64,000 nucleotides of DNA, from the sequence record NC_048203.1. The stretch is one strand, 5' to 3'. Numbering within the stretch: the stretch's first letter is position 1; every line of letters starts with the position of its first letter. Shown in pieces: positions 914 to 50,165 of the stretch. Source of the DNA: Escherichia phage vB_Eco_mar003J3. The notes under the pieces are model-generated. The model saw nothing but the letters and a program-made list of their open reading frames with translations, made no database searches and had not been told where the DNA came from. A program made the position numbers and the translations under genes.

Positions 914-1618
914 ATGGCTGGTTCTCGTAGAAAGAAACTTATCCATGAAATCCCTGATGAAACCTTTAAAAAGGTCATTGAACATCTGGAGAACGGTGGT
1001 ACTAAGAAAGCAGCATGTGAGATGCTCGGTGTTTCTTCTAACCCAACTATGGAACGAATGATCGAAGAATGGAGAGATCGTCAGGTTCAAGTTGCGGAAA
1101 TGAAAAAGAAGAAGCGTGGAACACTGATTGAGGGTGTTGAGCTTGCAAACGTAATTGAACAGTATCTTTCTGGTGATTCTTTTGAAGAAATTGCTGATCG
1201 TAACTATCGTTCTGTAGCGATGATTAAATCTGTTCTGGAACGTTATGGTGCTCTGCTTCGTTTAAACGATATTGTTGATCCATTGAATCCTCCGTTGATT
1301 CCTGATGATGCAATGGCAGAAGAATTTGAAGTTGGTGAACTTGTTTGGGTTCCTGGCTATCAGTGTATTGGTGAAATCAAGAAAGCAATGACCAACCCAG
1401 TTGGCTGCTACCGTGTTTGGTTGTTATCAGAAGGTAAACAACAGAACGTTCACTATATGCACTACGAATTAGCTTCTGTTAAACATCTGGAAAAGCTGGG
1501 TGTTGATGTTAAGGCTCTGGGCTTTAAGTGGAGTCGTGAAGAAGTTATCACGTTGGTTAATGAAGCTGTTAAAGCTGCCCTGAAACTAGATAAAGAGAAA
1601 GGAAAACGTCGTGAGTAA
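914..1618 (+). CDS. hypothetical early protein, possible HTH DNA-binding
   Basis: 234-aa ORF just downstream of PN25-like promoter; RBS GAGGAG; N-terminal basic region. Confidence 0.6.
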   Translation: MAGSRRKKLIHEIPDETFKKVIEHLENGGTKKAACEMLGVSSNPTMERMIEEWRDRQVQVAEMKKKKRGTLIEGVELANVIEQYLSGDSFEEIADRNYRSVAMIKSVLERYGALLRLNDIVDPLNPPLIPDDAMAEEFEVGELVWVPGYQCIGEIKKAMTNPVGCYRVWLLSEGKQQNVHYMHYELASVKHLEKLGVDVKALGFKWSREEVITLVNEAVKAALKLDKEKGKRRE

Positions 1619-1847
1619 ACTAACTGATCTGTTAAAAGCTGGAGACGTAAAATATCTCCAGCGAACTAGTTGGGAAAATAATAAAGATTACACAGTAATC
1701 CTGAAATTCTTTGTAGATAGCAATACCGTACGCCAGTACGTGTGGATGCCTTTTGATACATCATTATTCCCAAGTGATGAAGTGTGTGAACTAACCCTAG
1801 AAGAAGCCCTGGCCGACGATTGGGAGATCGTTGAACTAGATGTGTAG
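1611..1847 (+). CDS. hypothetical protein
   Basis: 78-aa ORF with GTG start overlapping the upstream stop; AAGGAAA RBS. Confidence 0.4.
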   Translation: MSKLTDLLKAGDVKYLQRTSWENNKDYTVILKFFVDSNTVRQYVWMPFDTSLFPSDEVCELTLEEALADDWEIVELDV

Positions 1848-1867
1848 CAGTTACTGAAAAATTTCAG

Positions 1868-1896
1868 TTGCTTAATCCTGTAATTCTTGATATAAT
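1868..1896 (+). promoter_or_regulatory. T5-type sigma70 promoter
   Basis: TTGCTT-17 bp-TATAAT upstream of ORF 1955. Confidence 0.6.
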
Positions 1897-1954
1897 ATTC
1901 TCATAGTTTGAAAGAACTATTCTGTTTAATTCTTAATTAAGGAAATCGAAAAAT

Positions 1955-2365
1955 ATGACTACTCCAACTCAGTGGACTGATGAACTGTTCGAAAAAATGT
2001 CTTCCGACTACGTTGCTCGTATGGAGCAATTCCCAGAAGATGAGCGTCCGGGCGTTAGCATGGAAATTGTTAGCGAAATTGCTCAGGAAAATGGTGTAAC
2101 TCCGAACGGTTTCCGTATGAAGCTGACCAAAGCAGGTCTGTATATCAAGAAAGCTGCTGGCTCTACTTCTAAATCAAGCGCATCTACTGGAGAAAAAGCT
2201 TCTGGTGGTTCTCGTACTTCCAAAGCTCAGGCTCACTCCGATCTTCGCTCTGCATTCTCTGATGCTGGCTTAGCCCCGGACTTCCTGGACGACGCAATCA
2301 TCGACAAGCTGACCGGTAAAGCAGCTGCTCATCTGGCAGAAGCTATCCGAGCTATCACTAAGTAA
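1955..2365 (+). CDS. hypothetical protein, Ala/Ser-rich
   Basis: 136-aa ORF with RBS; shares short Ala-rich stretches with ORF 5282..6049. Confidence 0.5.
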   Translation: MTTPTQWTDELFEKMSSDYVARMEQFPEDERPGVSMEIVSEIAQENGVTPNGFRMKLTKAGLYIKKAAGSTSKSSASTGEKASGGSRTSKAQAHSDLRSAFSDAGLAPDFLDDAIIDKLTGKAAAHLAEAIRAITK

Positions 2366-2401
2366 TTCTTAGATAAATCCACCAACACAAGGAATACAGT
2401 T

Positions 2402-2698
2402 ATGAATAAAGCTGAAATTATTGCTCAATGCGAAAAATTTGGTGAGTTTTATCTTCATTACGAAAAACTTCGTCAGAAAGGAACCACGTACCTTCAGGGT
2501 ACGATGGAATTTGATCCAGCTCAGGATAAATACCTGGCTGAGCGTATTAAACGTGAGCGCATCCGTAAGCCGAAAGAAGATGAAATCCTCGTTTTCTCTC
2601 GTACTAATGATAGCTTCCGTTTCATTCCTGTTGCGAAAGTTCGCCGTGTGACGAGCCTCCAGTCAGAGTTAGATCGTGCTTCTCCAGTAGGCCGATAA
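2402..2698 (+). CDS. hypothetical protein
   Basis: 98-aa ORF followed by an intrinsic terminator. Confidence 0.5.
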   Translation: MNKAEIIAQCEKFGEFYLHYEKLRQKGTTYLQGTMEFDPAQDKYLAERIKRERIRKPKEDEILVFSRTNDSFRFIPVAKVRRVTSLQSELDRASPVGR

Positions 2699-2709
2699 GA
2701 AACCAATTA

Positions 2710-2729
2710 GCCCCTATATGGGGCTTTTT
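2710..2729 (+). terminator. rho-independent terminator
   Basis: GCCCC-TATAT-GGGGC hairpin followed by TTTTT. Confidence 0.7.
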
Positions 2730-2748
2730 GTGTATTTGGGATATGTAA

Positions 2749-3057
2749 ATGAGCGATCAGGTAAATCAAAACTATGAAGGACACGTTGACGACCAGTCCA
2801 TCATGCTTTGGGAGAAGGAGGGGGAACAAGTAAGACTAACCGTATCTGAATTTCGTGGGAATCTATACATGGGAATTCGTTACTGGCTCCAAGATATTAC
2901 TGGAGAGTGGTTTCCAACGAAATCCGGCTTCTCTTTTCCTTATACCCTAGAAACTACATCACAGCTATTCTACGCTTTTACGCAAATCCTCAGTGAATCA
3001 GAGGTCTTGCATGAAGTACAGAAACGAGCTGAAGAACTCAAAGCCAAGAATGTCTAG
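2749..3057 (+). CDS. hypothetical protein
   Basis: 102-aa ORF; terminator hairpin overlaps its 3' end. Confidence 0.5.
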   Translation: MSDQVNQNYEGHVDDQSIMLWEKEGEQVRLTVSEFRGNLYMGIRYWLQDITGEWFPTKSGFSFPYTLETTSQLFYAFTQILSESEVLHEVQKRAEELKAKNV

Positions 3058-3072
3058 TTCTTGGCTTTTTCT
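3043..3072 (+). terminator. rho-independent terminator
   Basis: GCCAAGAA-loop-TTCTTGGC hairpin followed by T-run. Confidence 0.65.
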
Positions 3073-3084
3073 TTATAAATGTAC

Positions 3085-3113
3085 TTGCTTTCGACTCAGT
3101 TTTCATATATAAT
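3085..3113 (+). promoter_or_regulatory. T5-type sigma70 promoter
   Basis: TTGCTT-17 bp-TATAAT followed by ATTTATATAAATTGATGAGAGG conserved downstream box. Confidence 0.7.
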
Positions 3114-3142
3114 ATTTATATAAATTGATGAGAGGATCAATT

Positions 3143-3343
3143 ATGGCAATGACAATAACACTTCCAAAGATTCAAGCAAAACTTAATTTGCTCTCCATAG
3201 CAAGAATCAATTACCAGGATAGTATCGGCACTCCAAACCAGAAAGCGTACAAAGATGCGTGGTTGAAAGAAGCTGCTGATTTAGCTGGTATGGCTGCGCA
3301 GTATAGTAAAGAACTCAAAATGGAAATCGCAGATGATGAATAA
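3143..3343 (+). CDS. hypothetical small protein
   Basis: ATG at 3143 with GAGAGGA RBS; inside ORF-track frame 3125..3343. Confidence 0.4.
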   Translation: MAMTITLPKIQAKLNLLSIARINYQDSIGTPNQKAYKDAWLKEAADLAGMAAQYSKELKMEIADDE

Positions 3344-42283: not shown

Positions 42284-43497
42284 TCTTTATCCCCATCGGC
42301 AGTGCCTTGCGGTCTACCACCTTCTTGACCAGATACACCTGTTGCAGAACCAGCAATGTTAGCAGGAATACGAATCTTATTCATCTGCTCATCATCTAAA
42401 GGTTCAAGGTTAAGCTCTTCACGAGCTTCGTTACCAGTCATGATACCGTTATTAACCAAAGAGGTTAAATGTTTAGCCTCAGCTTCTTTATCTGGCGTCA
42501 GTGCAGCCACTTCCTTAGTATTAGGAGTAACCTTGTAGCCAAAGAAGAAAGTAAGAGAACTAGTCAGCTTGTTCAGCATGGGAATGATAGTCATGTAATA
42601 GAACAATTCGATGTTTGGTCGAATGTTAGCATTATTACCACCATCAAGTAACACTTGCGGAACACCAAAGGCAAGACAGATGGATTTATTAAATCCTTCG
42701 ATATCTTCCTTGAAGTCTAGATCTTTAAAAGAGGATATTTGGGAGTACGGTTTTGCTTTCATACCACCATCTAGAATCAGGACAGTAGACTGACCCGTAC
42801 TAGGATTATAATCGAGTTGTAATTCTTCTTGTTTACGCTCACGCAATTTCTTGTTCAGGATTTCATCCGTCTCAAGAATAAGACCAATCACAGTGCCGTT
42901 ATCGAGGAACTTCTCTTTAAAGTTAAGCATTTTAGAACGCTTCTCAAGAGAGTCAATAACTGTAGCAACACGAGATTGTCCAGAAATTTGGGAGTTTGTG
43001 CCACACACGTAACTGTTATCCTTTATAAAGATAATCTCATCTACGCGATAGTCTATCTGGTTATTAAATATGAATTTTTTGATAAACTTATTGGCATCTG
43101 CCTCTACTTGCATTAGTGCAGCAGGGACATGGTAAAGTGCTGTGCCATCCCAATAGATGTATGCACAACCCTCAAAAAGTAGATCAGTGACTACAAGTCT
43201 ACGGAATGTGCTTATATCCATGAATGGATTAGGTCGTACATTTAAGAGAGTGTCTAGAGTCTTTGCCTTGACGCCGTTAGCGTACGTGACAATATTATAT
43301 TTATCTCCGACAGTATAAGAACACTCCGCCGCACTATCGATAACCATGTTAGCAGTTCGGTTGAGAATCTCAATCTTACTGTAGGCTTGTCCAGTGGTAA
43401 ATGGCTTACGGTTAGTGCGATGACTAACTGGTTCCATGTCTCTTATAATACGTTGACCCGGATTTAGCTTTTCAGTAATCCAGCTTTTTAAACCCAT
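42280..43497 (-). CDS. portal protein pb7-like
   Basis: 405 aa; position downstream of terminase. Confidence 0.85.
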   Translation of the reverse strand: MGLKSWITEKLNPGQRIIRDMEPVSHRTNRKPFTTGQAYSKIEILNRTANMVIDSAAECSYTVGDKYNIVTYANGVKAKTLDTLLNVRPNPFMDISTFRRLVVTDLLFEGCAYIYWDGTALYHVPAALMQVEADANKFIKKFIFNNQIDYRVDEIIFIKDNSYVCGTNSQISGQSRVATVIDSLEKRSKMLNFKEKFLDNGTVIGLILETDEILNKKLRERKQEELQLDYNPSTGQSTVLILDGGMKAKPYSQISSFKDLDFKEDIEGFNKSICLAFGVPQVLLDGGNNANIRPNIELFYYMTIIPMLNKLTSSLTFFFGYKVTPNTKEVAALTPDKEAEAKHLTSLVNNGIMTGNEAREELNLEPLDDEQMNKIRIPANIAGSATGVSGQEGGRPQGTADGDKE

Positions 43498-44021
43498 TAT
43501 AAGAACCTTGCGAATCCTGATTTAGTTTCAGTCTTGACTTGTGTCTTTTCTTGAGGATTCTGTAGCTTTTCCTTTTGTTTAAGAACCCATACCTTCTGCT
43601 TATTAGCAGAGAAAAGGGGTGGTTCTTTAGTGTACACCTTATGTAATAGTTGGTGATGGTGGACACAAAGGGTAACAGTGTCATCTACTAGCTCATGCCT
43701 ATATCTTTCATAGAATGCCGTCCTATTTGAGAGGACTATTTCTTCGTCAGTGAAATCCAATTGGAGTTCTTTAGCAAATTTTTTAACTAGTAGAGACACT
43801 GTATGGTAATGATGAAGTTCTAATTCTTCACCACAACCACAGATTTCGCAGCGATCGGCTTTTTTATATTGACTTTTTATACCGTCTCGCATGAGTGATA
43901 TAGCATCACGTTTATATTTTACATTTCCTGCCACAGTATTCTCCTCAACTGTATGAATATAGTATACATAATCATGTCGAATTTGTAAAGGGGATTTTAA
44001 AATGCAGGAATGGGATACCAA
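43497..44021 (-). CDS. HNH endonuclease
   Basis: CEICGCGEELELHHYH ... CVHHHQLLH zinc-finger/HNH motifs; true start probably internal. Confidence 0.7.
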   Translation of the reverse strand: MVSHSCILKSPLQIRHDYVYYIHTVEENTVAGNVKYKRDAISLMRDGIKSQYKKADRCEICGCGEELELHHYHTVSLLVKKFAKELQLDFTDEEIVLSNRTAFYERYRHELVDDTVTLCVHHHQLLHKVYTKEPPLFSANKQKVWVLKQKEKLQNPQEKTQVKTETKSGFARFL

Positions 44022-44048: not shown

Positions 44049-45365
44049 TTATTTCCCACGGGAAATTGAGTAAATTCCATAACGCAGTGCGTCACAAAGG
44101 TGAGAGTTCGCATCATGACGTGGTTTTTCACGTGATAATTTCTCTTCACCTTCCTGGAAGTCCCACTTGTAGTTCGCTAAGGCGTGGATCAATGAGGTAC
44201 ATGAAGCATCTACGATGATCTTACCTTGCTGGAACAGTGCTTGCAGGCATGCCAAACCATCTAGGACGGATTTCTTAGCAGGAGCAGAAGCGATTTCATG
44301 TTCATAAGCTAAGTCCTGACGGAACTGAGCAGCGGCGGAGTCTACAAATATACGATCAACATTATAACGATCTATGCAGTGCTGGATATAAGCAGCGTGT
44401 TGGGCTGTAGTCTTTTCAGCCTGCTGATACTCTTCTAGTATGTAATAAACATCAGTATCATAGTGATACTTGATAGTAAGAACTGCTGTAGGGTCACGAT
44501 AACCAACGTCGATACCAAGTAATGTTTCGAAAGCCTCATCATCTTTAAAGAAGTGACGCATACCTTTGAGGTCTTTAACGTGCTCGATAGCATTGAAGGT
44601 ATCAAAGATCTGACCTTCGAATACGGAGAAGTCAGCCTCATATTCTTGACGGAAATAGTTTTTACTAACAGTACGACGCGCTTCTTCGATATCGTTCAGG
44701 TCAGCACGTGGGTTATCACGATATGTACCATGAATAGATACCCAATTAGGTAGCGTTTCGTTAAATCCTTTCTCATAGAACTCTTTGAACCAGTTACCCC
44801 CACGAGGAGTAGAGATAAATAGAGCTTTAGAGTTTGGCTTATCTAGGGTAGGACGTAACTGAATATCGAAAGCTGCACCACCAACGTCGGAAATCGCTGC
44901 TTCGTCAAAAATGATGAAGTCATATGAACGACCAACCGCGGAGTCAGCCTGCGCCGCGGAAGCCAGTTTAAAGAGTGAACCATTCGCTAATTCAATCTCT
45001 TTATCTTTGGCGTTCTCACGTTCAGTCTGTAATCCATACTTTTTAATAAGACCACGAATCTGTGACCAACCAATGTTAGCCAGTGAGTAGTTAGGTGCAA
45101 CTACTAGCACCTTCACATTGGGTTCCAGAAGTTTTAAGAACCCAAGTGTATATGCGATGAACGACTTACCTACACGACGTGATACACATGCAGTTACGAA
45201 ACGGTGTCTAGGATCTTCCAGCGCGTTAATAATTGCAACCTGAGGGGCGTTAGGCGTAATCCCCTCTTGAGCTAGAATGCTAGAGACTGGCAGACGGAAA
45301 AATCGTTTGTCAATACCAAAGTCAATAACATCTGTGGTGTTAATATAATCTCTAGAGACCTTCAT
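44049..45365 (-). CDS. terminase large subunit
   Basis: 438 aa; Walker A-like CVSRRVGKS, Walker B FIIFDEAA, C-terminal RNaseH-like nuclease region. Confidence 0.9.
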   Translation of the reverse strand: MKVSRDYINTTDVIDFGIDKRFFRLPVSSILAQEGITPNAPQVAIINALEDPRHRFVTACVSRRVGKSFIAYTLGFLKLLEPNVKVLVVAPNYSLANIGWSQIRGLIKKYGLQTERENAKDKEIELANGSLFKLASAAQADSAVGRSYDFIIFDEAAISDVGGAAFDIQLRPTLDKPNSKALFISTPRGGNWFKEFYEKGFNETLPNWVSIHGTYRDNPRADLNDIEEARRTVSKNYFRQEYEADFSVFEGQIFDTFNAIEHVKDLKGMRHFFKDDEAFETLLGIDVGYRDPTAVLTIKYHYDTDVYYILEEYQQAEKTTAQHAAYIQHCIDRYNVDRIFVDSAAAQFRQDLAYEHEIASAPAKKSVLDGLACLQALFQQGKIIVDASCTSLIHALANYKWDFQEGEEKLSREKPRHDANSHLCDALRYGIYSISRGK

Positions 45366-45847
45366 TATCTCTTACCTCCTCCTGCTAGAGCGGTAATAAG
45401 ATTCATATAGTTTTCGTCACCACTTCCAGCAATAATATTATTCTGAATGTTAGTCTGGTTAGCCGGAGTACGGGCTGCTGCCTTCACTTTCTCCAGTTCT
45501 ACCATCATTTTCATTTCTTCCATCTTCATCTTATGCGCCTTCCAGAGAATATCCATGATATCCTGGTCAGAACCCATGCCAGTTTCTTCGAGTTCTTCCA
45601 ACTTGCGCTTGATAACTTCATCAAGAACTCCGAATAAGCGGTCACGATTACGGAAGCCACTTTCCATAAAGATATCGTTGAGATAGTTTTTAACTTCCCC
45701 ACGATTCATTATATCACGGAATACAATCTCGGACATTCCAAGACTACGAGCGGCGGCAGGAACATCACTACCGCACTGTAAATAGGCTTCAATAACATCC
45801 ATGCCCTCAGGAGACATGAGATCGGGAACTAATACATCATTTGCCAT
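45365..45847 (-). CDS. terminase small subunit (putative)
   Basis: 160 aa immediately upstream of the large subunit gene, sharing one base with its start; N-terminal HTH-like region. Confidence 0.6.
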
Positions 45848-45857
45848 ATATCCTCCT

Positions 45858-47639
45858 TTAGGTTAGGCGTTGAACTGTTACACGTAGTCTTGGCAAGAAA
45901 ACAGCCGCCGCTTCCGCAGCGTGAATGATAACACCCAATTCAACGTTGCCATTACCAAGGTTTTTAATAGTATAAATATATCCGTTCCTACGGAAAGCAA
46001 ACTCATCAGGCCTACTAGCCCAAGTTTGTGTATAACTATAGGAAGTTGTACTGTGATAAGGTACTAGATATCCAGGTGGCAGAGTAAGAATCTGGTGGAA
46101 TACACCATCACCAGCAGTATAACTTTGTTGCCGTCTACCTTGTACCTGCCAAGCACTACCTCCGTAAGTACGCACAGGCATTCCAGCAGTATTAAGATTA
46201 CCCATAATAACTTCGGTAGTTAATATAACAGTAGAGTGAGCATTCGGTAATCCCAACCAAACTGTGGCCAAAGGTGTGTAGAAGTCACCAGCACCAGGGT
46301 AGGATGGAGTTATATCGTCCCCTACATAAGTACTTGCAACGTTGCCTGGGAATAACCTGAGTGGTACAGTACTAGGACTCCACACAGGTCCATGTTCATT
46401 ACCAATGGAGTTGGTATTAGTATCTACATACCATTGTTTACCTACACCAAATTTATATAAGCTAATTTGAGAAGCTGCACCCCCATAGTTAACTGGTGAC
46501 CACAACCCACCATTACTAGAGCCGATAAATTCACATCGTGCAGTATTATCACCAAAAACTCCGGTATACGCAGCGTTATTACCAACATACTCCATATCAG
46601 GGCGATAGCCTAAGTTTCCGAAAGCATTCTGGTTAATAAATTTATAGCCTGTATTTGGTAGGCTAACACCTTTAATAGTAAAGTTAGATGGAGATATTAA
46701 GATATCTGAACTGGTAAATGGATTACCAGAAACTCCCATACTACCATTAGAATAGCGCAGATTTAGTACATACCAAATAACCTTAGTTGGCGTAACGTTG
46801 TACCAGTCCTGTACATATACCTTTCTAGTGGCTTGTGCAGCCATATTAGTTGTAGAACCCCTACAAACGTATACTTTAGTAGGAAAGGAGGGGGATTGGT
46901 AGTTAATGTTTACGTTATCTGGTAGTACGCCTTTTTTACCTGCGAAGCCACGAATATTAGAACTACAAACATAAAACCAATCATGGCCTCTACCAGCAGA
47001 ACCAATAGGCGCCTGCCAGTTAGGATCCCAATAATCTGCGTTACCACCATCTAAAGGAACAGTAGAGACACCAGTTGGAAAACCCATAAGACTCCAGGCT
47101 CTGGCAATGGCTTCACCAGCAGAAACACCACCAGGTCTAAAGATCTGGAAACCAGAGGACTGTAGTAAACTGCCTCCAGAACCTTGCCTAGCAATAGATT
47201 CCTCATGACCAAGACCACCATTATAGATATAAGTACCATGAGCTAAACTATCACCGATCGCAAAAGCAGATGTTACAGATAATTCAGCACCAGCACGTGG
47301 TGGGTCTTCAAAGAATGATAAGAACTGGCCAACCTGAGATTGAGTACCATTCAGAAATCCACGATGAGTACCGTTTATCTCAATAGCAGTTAATATAACT
47401 CTACCCGGATCATTGGATTTAATATTTATAATATCCCAAGGCATCTGAGTAACAAAGTATCCATTACCTGCATTACCTAGGGCTGCTTCATAAGTCCCAT
47501 CAACCAGGACGAAAGGCATATCTGAGTGGAAGATACTATTAGTATTTGGAGAATAGTGCTCACCAGTATCACCACCATTAGCAGCGTTTAGAGATAATAC
47601 AGTTTTACCATCACTAAATTTTCCTGCGAAAAAACTCAT
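45858..47639 (-). CDS. receptor-binding tail protein (pb5-like)
   Basis: 593 aa, Gly/Asn/Tyr-rich; first gene of the late strand, divergent from the llp-like gene; RBS AAGGAGA. Confidence 0.7.
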
Positions 47640-47664
47640 ACAATCTCCTTCTTTAAAAATGTAT

Positions 47665-47693
47665 TTGCTTAGGTCCCTCTATTTTGCTATAAT
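47665..47693 (+). promoter_or_regulatory. T5-type sigma70 promoter driving llp
   Basis: TTGCTT-17 bp-TATAAT followed by ATATTTATAAATTAAACAGAGG. Confidence 0.65.
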
Positions 47694-47722
47694 ATATTTA
47701 TAAATTAAACAGAGGAACGATT

Positions 47723-47989
47723 ATGAAAAAGTTACTAGCTATCGTAGTTGCAGCAGTAGTGTTGACTGGTTGTGTACCAGCTCCCGAGCCGTTCTGTAAG
47801 GCATACGTGAAGTCTTATGGTCATGTTGGTGAAGAACACTATGCTTTAGATATTCGAGAAGCACGTACTGTGGGCTACCGATTCCCTAAAACTCAGTTAC
47901 GCACTAAGTTTGGGTGGTGGGATCTGTCACAGTTTGATCTCAAATATGGCGATTGCAAATTTAAACTAGAACAATCTGGTCACTTGTAA
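47723..47989 (+). CDS. llp: Llp-like superinfection-exclusion lipoprotein
   Basis: 88 aa; signal peptide MKKLLAIVVAAVVLTGC with lipobox LTGC; small Cys-containing mature domain; divergent from the RBP gene as in T5. Confidence 0.75.
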   Translation: MKKLLAIVVAAVVLTGCVPAPEPFCKAYVKSYGHVGEEHYALDIREARTVGYRFPKTQLRTKFGWWDLSQFDLKYGDCKFKLEQSGHL

Positions 47990-48316
47990 TTAGTATAAAG
48001 TAAAAAGATCTCGAAGTAAACAAAAATTTTTATTTCTGGGATGAGGTACAGGTAGCAAACACAATGCAAGATGAAGAAAAGCCCTTTCAGGAACCTGTTA
48101 ACTTTGAAATAGATCCCAGGACTAAAGCAATACATGATGCGATTAACGAAATCATTCAAGACGTCATAGAAGATACAATATAAGACGTGATGGGAACATC
48201 CTTCTTACTAGAAGAATCCGGCTTCGACGAAGTAATGGATCTAATCGGGACAGTCGTAATGGTTCGTGCAATTGCTAGGGTATTCCAAATACCAAGACTA
48301 TAGGAGAAGCAAAGAG

Positions 48317-48451
48317 ATGTCAGACGACAACAGAAGAAAGAACAGACGCGGGGAAGTGTACGAAAGTTGGATAAATAGTTTCGGATTCGGAACTGTATTA
48401 TTCTTTATCTTTGTACTCTTTTGGTTAGCGGCTATGGCGGGGTGGTTATAA
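48317..48451 (+). CDS. small membrane protein (44 aa)
   Basis: ATG 48317 after AGGAGAAG; basic N-terminus then one hydrophobic helix. Confidence 0.4.
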   Translation: MSDDNRRKNRRGEVYESWINSFGFGTVLFFIFVLFWLAAMAGWL

Positions 48452-48555
48452 TGGAAGTAATAATTATTGCTTTACTAGTTGTGGTAATTATCGGGCAGTG
48501 CATTTTAGATAACCACTTAACTCGTATCGAACGTAAGCTGCGGGGAGACAAGTAA
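48451..48555 (+). CDS. small membrane protein (34 aa)
   Basis: MEVIIIALLVVVIIGQC...; TAATG overlaps with both neighbours; below the ORF-track size cut-off. Confidence 0.35.
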   Translation: MEVIIIALLVVVIIGQCILDNHLTRIERKLRGDK

Positions 48556-48773
48556 TGTTTAGTTTTGTAGCTATCTTCATTATTGGGGTACTTGCGGGAA
48601 TCTTCGGAACACTCGGGGCGATTAATAAGCATCGTGAATATATTGTGGGAGTATCGCGGGAGCTTTCGGAAAGGGAGCGGAGGTTTGCAGAAAAACGGGA
48701 GGAGTTCGAGCGAGAGTGGAGTGCTGGCTCAAGAAGCTCTCGTAGGAGATTTAAGATAGATGACAAATCATAA
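48555..48773 (+). CDS. small membrane protein (72 aa)
   Basis: N-terminal TM helix then charged Arg/Glu-rich tail. Confidence 0.45.
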   Translation: MFSFVAIFIIGVLAGIFGTLGAINKHREYIVGVSRELSERERRFAEKREEFEREWSAGSRSSRRRFKIDDKS

Positions 48774-49257
48774 GCCCTTACTTCCCTTAGAGGAATACCA
48801 GAGTAAGTTCGATTATGATCCAGAAACAGGTATATTTACTTGGAACTCGGGGAGTCGTAGAGGTAAACCAGCTGGCGGCCGTAATGACTCGGGCATTTCC
48901 CTTTCTATGGGCAGCAAAGGCAAGTATAAGGCCCACCGAGTGGCGTGGTTATACATGACAGGGGAAGATCCAGGAGATCTTCTAATAGATCATAAAGATC
49001 AAGACCCCTGGAACAATAAATGGAACAACTTACGAAAAGCTACGAATAAAGAAAATAGTAATAACTCTTCCGGATGGGAAAATAAATCCACAGGTGTAAA
49101 AGGGATATATAAGAGGACAGAAGGGAAGTTCGAGGCGAGAATACGTGCTAACGGGGAAAGAATCAACGTAGGTACATTTGGTAGCCTCGAGGAAGCTGAA
49201 AGTGCGATAAGGGAAGCACGTGAGAAAGTATGTGGTGAGTTCACAAACCACGGTTAA
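48760..49257 (+). CDS. HNH homing endonuclease with AP2-like domain
   Basis: Paralogue of ORF 7601..8131 (shared YDPETGIFTW / HKDQDPWNN motifs). Confidence 0.75.
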   Translation: MTNHKPLLPLEEYQSKFDYDPETGIFTWNSGSRRGKPAGGRNDSGISLSMGSKGKYKAHRVAWLYMTGEDPGDLLIDHKDQDPWNNKWNNLRKATNKENSNNSSGWENKSTGVKGIYKRTEGKFEARIRANGERINVGTFGSLEEAESAIREAREKVCGEFTNHG

Positions 49258-49430: not shown

Positions 49431-50165
49431 TTAGGCAACTTTTAATTTATCAATGAATTGTTGCGGAGCGGTACTATAGTCTCCCCTTTCTTCCTCAGTC
49501 ATACCCTGCCAGCACATTTCTAAGCGCTGGCAAAGATATTGATAATCATTATCATCATCTAACGATTCATCAATAAAGGTTTCACCGATCAATGCTACGC
49601 CGATTGATAGGATATCGTTAACGGCTTGGGCGTCCAGTGTTTTGAATCCAGCACTTGCCGCCACCGATAATACGCCTTTATGATCATCAATCATCGTAAA
49701 ATCAGCGTTTGGATATAGCTGTTTAAATAGTTCAAAGTAATAGCTTTTGTATACAGCGTCTTTGCTGTGGTATATTTCGCTAACCTTATCCGCTTCAAAG
49801 TATTTGTGTAATGTATCGCGGGAGAATACGCGGATATTGCTATTTCCGCGCCCTCGCAAGCCTTGTTTACGCAAATAAAAGTAATCGCTTTTAGACATAA
49901 GGCGCGCGGTACAAATAACATTTAAAGTATTTGCATCATTCATACATTGGCGCATATATTCAACCAACGGCAATAAAGAATCCTGCATAATTAAATCATG
50001 TTTACAGGCTTCGCGGGAATACTTATTTAAATTTAAATTCCCGTTATCATCAAAGCAAGGCGCTACACGATGGAAAGAATTAATGATTGTGCCGTCCAGA
50101 TCCCAAATCATGACGCGGGAAATATGCGGGAAATTATGGGTAATATTCGTTTTAACTTGATTCAT
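49431..50165 (-). CDS. dmp: 5'-deoxyribonucleotidase (Dmp-like, HAD-type)
   Basis: 244 aa (the size I recall for T5 Dmp); WDLDGT HAD motif I. Confidence 0.8.
   Translation of the reverse strand: MNQVKTNITHNFPHISRVMIWDLDGTIINSFHRVAPCFDDNGNLNLNKYSREACKHDLIMQDSLLPLVEYMRQCMNDANTLNVICTARLMSKSDYFYLRKQGLRGRGNSNIRVFSRDTLHKYFEADKVSEIYHSKDAVYKSYYFELFKQLYPNADFTMIDDHKGVLSVAASAGFKTLDAQAVNDILSIGVALIGETFIDESLDDDNDYQYLCQRLEMCWQGMTEEERGDYSTAPQQFIDKLKVA

Follow-up and report, generated by a model that had tools for sequence, protein, structure and literature searches.

Divergent receptor-binding protein and lipoprotein genes of Escherichia phage vB_Eco_mar003J3 correspond to a predicted BtuB-type host-recognition module

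In phage T5, the receptor-binding protein pb5 (Oad) occupies the tip of the straight central fibre, and its binding to the receptor triggers DNA ejection; both position and role are known for T5 only (PMC9586334, PMC4728585). T5 Llp, a periplasmic lipoprotein, engages the FhuA plug in a non-native state and folds the extracellular loops EL7/EL8 inward, so that pb5 cannot bind; the authors of this work expect the mechanism to extend to other TonB-dependent transporters (PMC9586334). Within the Markadamsvirinae, receptor-binding proteins (RBPs) form three clusters, which predict BtuB, FepA or FhuA as the receptor, and "the vast majority target BtuB" (PMC8594841). Use of BtuB has been reported for SPC35, BF23, DT57C and phiR2-01, and also for EPS7, as cited in the same papers (PMC8624392, PMC10644984). 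S114 and S133 are named among the BtuB-binding phages (PMC12980165), and BtuB is given as the terminal receptor of IrmaTschudi/Bas28 (BASEL Table S5, PMC8594841). For JNwz02, deletion of btuB resulted in the loss of plaques and a drop in adsorption from 91% to 8% (PMC11014889); btuB mutants are likewise resistant to phages of the BF23/DT57C type (PMC4728585).

The stretch of DNA analysed here (the window; 64,000 nucleotides of Escherichia phage vB_Eco_mar003J3, sequence record NC_048203.1) contains a divergent RBP/llp gene pair with 83 nt between the two genes (Table 1). An earlier reading of this DNA, made from the sequence alone, had described an RBP-like ORF and an Llp-like lipoprotein with the lipobox LTGC, arranged as in T5 but differing from the T5 prototype in size. 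The coordinates and sizes of both genes are exactly as it had given them (ORF list of the window), and the T5 sizes it had named are those of the T5 record (AY692264), in which oad/pb5 comprises 1923 nt (640 aa) and llp 234 nt (77 aa). The T5-like arrangement is present as well: terS (45365..45847) and then terL (44049..45365) come after the RBP gene on the minus strand, in the order of the T5 record, and in the annotated records of SPC35, BF23 and DT57C the RBP gene likewise lies immediately upstream of terS/terL and diverges from llp. Over 15 kb around the locus, the DNA shares 92-96% identity with that of Epseptimavirus phages, so that the window comes from an EPS7-like relative of T5, a member of Epseptimavirus (Demerecviridae, Markadamsvirinae). 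Both genes are real and not chance ORFs, since each matches a PHROG family and has homologues in a large number of records (533 for the RBP and 396 for Llp; tblastn against 50,697 phage records).

Table 1. Features of the RBP/llp locus, in positions of the window.
Feature	Position	Strand	Basis
RBP, tail-tip protein, pb5/Hrs/Oad homologue, BtuB-type, 593 aa	45858..47639	-	ORF, PHROG 4815, PDB, identities
RBP Shine-Dalgarno AGGAG, 5 nt before ATG	47645..47649	-	read from sequence
Putative llp promoter: -35 TTGCTT 47665-47670, 17-nt spacer, TG extension 47685-47686, -10 TATAAT 47688-47693	47665..47693	+	sequence and alignment
llp Shine-Dalgarno GAGGA, 6 nt before ATG	47712..47716	+	read from sequence
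Llp, predicted receptor-blocking (lytic conversion / superinfection exclusion) lipoprotein precursor, 88 aa	47723..47989	+	ORF, PHROG 1119, identities

The surroundings of the locus vary between isolates. A homing endonuclease with HNH_3 and AP2 domains (48760-49257, plus strand, 165 aa; Pfam HNH_3 2.6e-14, PHROG 99 4e-56) is placed between the small ORFs that follow llp and a minus-strand ORF (49431-50165), which corresponds in position to the gene that T5 and IrmaTschudi annotate as dNMP monophosphatase. At the equivalent site, IrmaTschudi has a putative homing endonuclease, and T5, BF23 and DT57C have none; the endonuclease gene is a variable insertion. Between the portal gene and terL, the minus strand contains a 174-aa ORF with a TTG start (43497-44021) and the Cys/His motifs CEICG...HHYH...CVHHH. 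The records of BF23 and DT57C have sciA at this position, annotated as a nicking endonuclease of 145 aa, and that of T5 has a hypothetical protein of 277 aa. A simple scan of positions 45300-48800 returned nine terminator-like hairpins, compared with 2.3 ± 1.6 expected from shuffles, most of them inside the RBP coding sequence and on both strands.

Over its full length (residues 1-593), the RBP matched PHROG 4815 "receptor binding tail protein" (E 1.2e-280), as do T5 pb5 and BF23 Hrs, and among PDB entries it matched T5 pb5 (8b14_B/8a8c_B; E ~7e-45); no Pfam family was matched. In tblastn, it was 99.5-99.8% identical to the proteins of Seafire, SB6, S114, S133, saus132 and IrmaTschudi, which are Epseptimavirus phages of Salmonella and Escherichia in which the protein is annotated as receptor-binding protein; identity to the RBP of JNwz02 was 96.3%. 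When orthologues were taken from annotated records and aligned globally (only the EPS7 RBP figure comes from tblastn instead), identities of the RBP and of Llp to those of BtuB-dependent phages were 99.5% and 100% (IrmaTschudi), about 94% and 98.9% (EPS7), 82.4% and 69.3% (SPC35), 75.3% and 68.2% (BF23), and 64.4% and 67.0% (DT57C), respectively. The corresponding values for T5, which uses FhuA, were 29.7% and 17%. With S124, which served as the FepA-type reference, the RBP shared 28.3%, and there was no Llp to compare. The distribution of RBP identities is bimodal: the full-length tblastn matches listed for a sample spread over the 533 records were all either at least 62.9% or at most 34% identical, and T5 belonged to the lower group. 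Membership of the RBP in the pb5/Hrs family, and in its BtuB-specific cluster, is directly supported by these matches and identities.

Judged by sequence identity, the RBP clusters with those of BtuB-dependent phages, apart from the FhuA and FepA clusters. The sequence-only reading had anticipated a receptor other than FhuA, for example BtuB or FepA. The pairwise alignments bear this out, as high identity to pb5 and Llp of T5 is absent, and the choice narrows to BtuB, the RBP being 64-99.5% identical to those of BtuB phages versus less than a third for T5 and S124. The receptor of the RBP is predicted with high confidence to be BtuB, on the strength of a clustering that is correlative, and no observation contradicts this assignment. 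With the RBPs of IrmaTschudi (BtuB; BASEL Table S5) and of the BtuB binders S114 and S133 only 1-3 residues away, with the more divergent RBPs of DT57C (64%) and BF23 (75%) still using BtuB, and with identities of about 28-30% to FhuA- and FepA-type RBPs, it is very improbable that the protein recognizes FhuA, FepA or another TonB-dependent transporter despite its likeness to BtuB binders, for example by way of changed receptor-contacting loops, even though RBPs of the BtuB cluster are mosaic and the region most divergent from BF23 (residues 151-250; 54-66% identity) falls within or next to the N-terminal portion that has been linked to receptor recognition (PMC4728585). The prediction of BtuB also puts the sizes into perspective: because the BF23 prototype consists of a 595-aa RBP and an 88-aa Llp, the size gap compared with T5 is an ordinary signature of the BtuB type. 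Far from being unusual, as the comparison with T5 might imply, the module is the commonest allele among T5-like phages (PMC8594841). A published report on phage Cit2 (PMC12980165, section 3.2.3) gives the identity of its RBP as 96.9% to T5 pb5 but likewise as 67-73% to BtuB-type RBPs; these figures are mutually incompatible, because identity between the T5 and BtuB-type RBPs is ~30% here.

The N-terminus of Llp (MKKLLAIVVAAVVLTGC) contains a signal peptide with the lipobox L14-T15-G16-C17 (MKKLLAIVVAAVVL-TGC); the signal peptide comprises residues 1-16, and the predicted lipidation site, Cys17, is encoded at 47771-47773. Residues 1-17 matched the Pfam lipid attachment site LPAM_1 with a score of 18.6 bits, slightly below the threshold of 20. 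According to the Lol sorting rule of E. coli, lipoproteins with Val at position +2 are sent to the outer membrane. The +2 residue of Llp is Val, not Asp, and by this rule the protein would be sorted there. Llp matched PHROG 1119 "Cor superinfection exclusion protein" (E 1.2e-23). At least 99% identity was found in 132 phage records and full identity in more than 100, including IrmaTschudi, S114 and S133; identical proteins are annotated either as receptor-blocking protein or as Cor superinfection exclusion protein, and that of EPS7 as "receptor-blocking protein". The alignments with the Llp of BF23 and DT57C extend over 88/88 residues and contain no gaps. In the family alignment, G16, C17, C25 and C78 are invariant and the C-terminal half is nearly so. 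With 10 clusters at 90% identity among the 5.8 billion proteins of a database, and an Neff of 1.7, the family is narrow. In an AF2 model of Llp, most of the mature domain has a pLDDT above 90; a sequence search of the PDB with Llp gave no match. Membership of Llp in the BF23-type family of receptor-blocking lipoproteins is directly supported at the level of sequence. The proposal that Llp blocks the cognate receptor for superinfection exclusion agrees with what is known of its 67-68% identical relatives from BF23 and DT57C: plasmid-borne llp of DT57C inhibits BF23-type (BtuB-dependent) phages, with T5 unaffected (PMC4728585). Llp of the window possesses all the features that this role requires: the lipobox with G16-C17, Val at +2, two further invariant cysteines and the conserved C-terminal half.

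Of the elements between the two genes, the CTCC core of the RBP ribosome-binding site (47645-47648) is invariant in 6/6 aligned phages, and the fifth base differs in T5. Both hexamers of the llp promoter, the extended -10 region of which reads TGcTATAAT, are invariant in the window, IrmaTschudi, EPS7, SPC35, BF23 and T5, whereas the flanking genes are only 17-30% identical to those of T5. This promoter was located by reading and alignment. A consensus promoter scan did not report it, because its -35 hexamer matches TTGACA at only 3/6 positions. Across Epseptimavirus, BF23, SPC35 and T5, the promoter (TTGCTT-17-TGnTATAAT) is kept together with nearby A/T-rich blocks, and the flanking genes are swapped between receptor types. 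The records of T5 and BF23 annotate putative promoters at the same place, and the llp-directed one of BF23 is labelled early. The conserved promoter and its annotation would fit the early expression of T5 Llp reported by Decker et al. 1994, as cited in PMC8624392. For DT57C, a recombination point between hrs and llp has been proposed (PMC4728585), and the conserved promoter island is likely the joint at which cassettes of RBP and Llp are exchanged. The same promoter bears on whether llp functions at all. The protein equivalent to Llp in phiR2-01, Gp145, escaped detection by proteomics (PMC8624392), which would be in keeping with a decaying or unexpressed remnant. Hardly any weight can be given to this reading, considering that Llp is 100% identical across more than 100 independent isolates, that neither the lipobox nor any of the three cysteines varies in the family and the C-terminal half hardly does, and that llp is preceded by a good ribosome-binding site and by a promoter with a perfect extended -10 region, both of them conserved across genera.

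Both Llp of the window and T5 Llp match PHROG 1119 over their full length. The invariant residues Cys25 and Cys78 (Cys9 and Cys62 of the mature protein), one N-proximal and the other C-proximal, are at positions equivalent to those of the Cys11-Cys58 disulphide in T5 Llp (PMC9586334). A Foldseek search with Llp gave no significant match. Because hhalign of the Llp family alignment, which is shallow, with T5 Llp aligned only residues 1-29 (the signal peptide and the first Cys motif), and because the mature domains of the two proteins showed no pairwise similarity (z = -0.34 vs shuffles), homology of the mature domains is not claimed here. A fold and mechanism common to both types of Llp is nevertheless plausible, and we lean slightly towards it. 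The lack of similarity between the mature domains, the short hhalign alignment and the Foldseek result, together with the description of BF23 and T5 Llp as non-homologous (PMC4728585, PMC10644984), could also mean that Llp blocks BtuB in a manner unlike that of T5 Llp (for example, by masking the extracellular face once it is exposed at the surface, or indirectly via TonB or lipopolysaccharide) and is an analogue, not a homologue, of T5 Llp and Cor; we consider this rather unlikely. As for the common mechanism, a more far-reaching version of it is, in our estimation, evenly poised between true and false: the BtuB-type Llp would have the small beta-barrel fold of T5 Llp with its disulphide and would jam the BtuB plug from the periplasm by "reverse allostery," and Llp(T5), Llp(BF23/EPS7) and Cor would be one ancient family of transporter-jamming lipoproteins, diversifying with the RBPs around a conserved promoter as the recombination joint. 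If true, this would hold for the known family in its entirety and would not be peculiar to the window.

The locus is very probably a host-recognition and lytic-conversion module of the BF23/EPS7 (BtuB) type, which would work as follows. The RBP, positioned at the tip of the central tail fibre as is known from T5, would bind irreversibly to BtuB, the outer-membrane TonB-dependent transporter of vitamin B12, and binding would commit the virion to DNA ejection, again by analogy with T5. Llp would be made early from the conserved T5-type promoter, its precursor would receive a lipid at Cys17 and be directed to the outer membrane, and by binding BtuB it would render infected cells and debris inaccessible to the adsorption of further BtuB-dependent phages and of the progeny released by lysis. 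In doing so, Llp most likely acts from the periplasmic face, like its T5 counterpart; if the crystal structure of T5 Llp with FhuA is a guide, it may jam the plug of the transporter and close the extracellular loops allosterically.

The BtuB-type RBP/Llp module is already known, very common, and characterized in BF23, EPS7, SPC35 and DT57C. As identical or near-identical genes are present in well over a hundred genomes and the system has been characterized, the locus contains nothing biologically new. For annotation, it means that BtuB is the predicted terminal receptor on which the phage depends, and that infected cells are predicted to become BtuB-blocked. This is of use for the design of phage cocktails, in which a shared receptor is to be avoided, and for foreseeing btuB resistance mutations and their fitness cost. 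The remaining interest is structural and concerns the whole family, namely, how BtuB-type RBP and Llp engage BtuB; the PDB copy searched contained no solved structure of any BtuB-type RBP or Llp.

Among the phages used for comparison, S124 (NC_048013), with its FepA-type RBP, is a special case. A 103-aa protein of this phage (5219-5530; the CDS is only 122 nt from the start of the RBP gene) is annotated as "receptor blocking protein, T5 Llp-like". It contains no signal peptide or lipobox and was rejected as a FepA-type Llp; it corresponds to a fusion of the homologues of two small ORFs of the window downstream of llp (48064-48183 and 48187-48303; 39 and 38 aa). Because the annotated protein is not an Llp, there is no comparison with an Llp of the FepA type. 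At the canonical position, S124 appears to have no lipoprotein of the Llp type, and its annotation seems to follow position rather than homology. In the Cit2 paper (PMC12980165), the "Llp" of S124 is put together with that of DT57C, though the protein so annotated is no lipoprotein. The EPS7 record (CP000917) has peculiarities of its own: no CDS is annotated in the RBP region (1453-3231), where the tblastn match is in three pieces, which suggests frameshift errors in the old sequence, and Llp is annotated with one additional Ala in the signal peptide (89 aa).

Among the described systems with which the module can be compared are the Cor lipoproteins of T1, phi80, N15 and HK022. These are small lipoproteins that inactivate the TonB-dependent transporter used as phage receptor (PMC9586334); they share PHROG 1119 with Llp of the window. 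Cor proteins target FhuA, and their genome contexts are unrelated to that of the window. T5 pb5 and T5 Llp, for which structures have been solved (8a8c, 8b14, 8a60 and 7qjf), also differ in the receptor, which is FhuA, not BtuB. The longer pb5 cannot be aligned with residues ~196-272 of the window RBP, and the similarity of the shorter T5 Llp is confined to the signal peptide. Hrs of BF23 and the Llp of BF23 and DT57C (Tequintavirus), in contrast, belong to the same family as the proteins of the window, are of almost the same size, and are encoded by genes that are likewise divergent and upstream of terS/terL. BtuB dependence and Llp exclusion limited to BtuB-dependent phages have been demonstrated for this system (PMC4728585). 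It differs in that it belongs to another genus and has a mosaic RBP, with the identity lowest at residues 151-250, as described above; in Llp, the N-terminal half of the mature chain differs, and residues 58-85 are nearly identical. The closest system is the Epseptimavirus module of EPS7, S114, S133, Seafire, IrmaTschudi/Bas28 and JNwz02, which has the same size, order, orientation and intergenic promoter. The differences are limited to one to a few substitutions in the RBP and to flanking small ORFs and homing endonucleases that vary by isolate; with identities of 94-99.8% for the RBP and 98.9-100% for Llp, these are essentially the same genes as those of the window.
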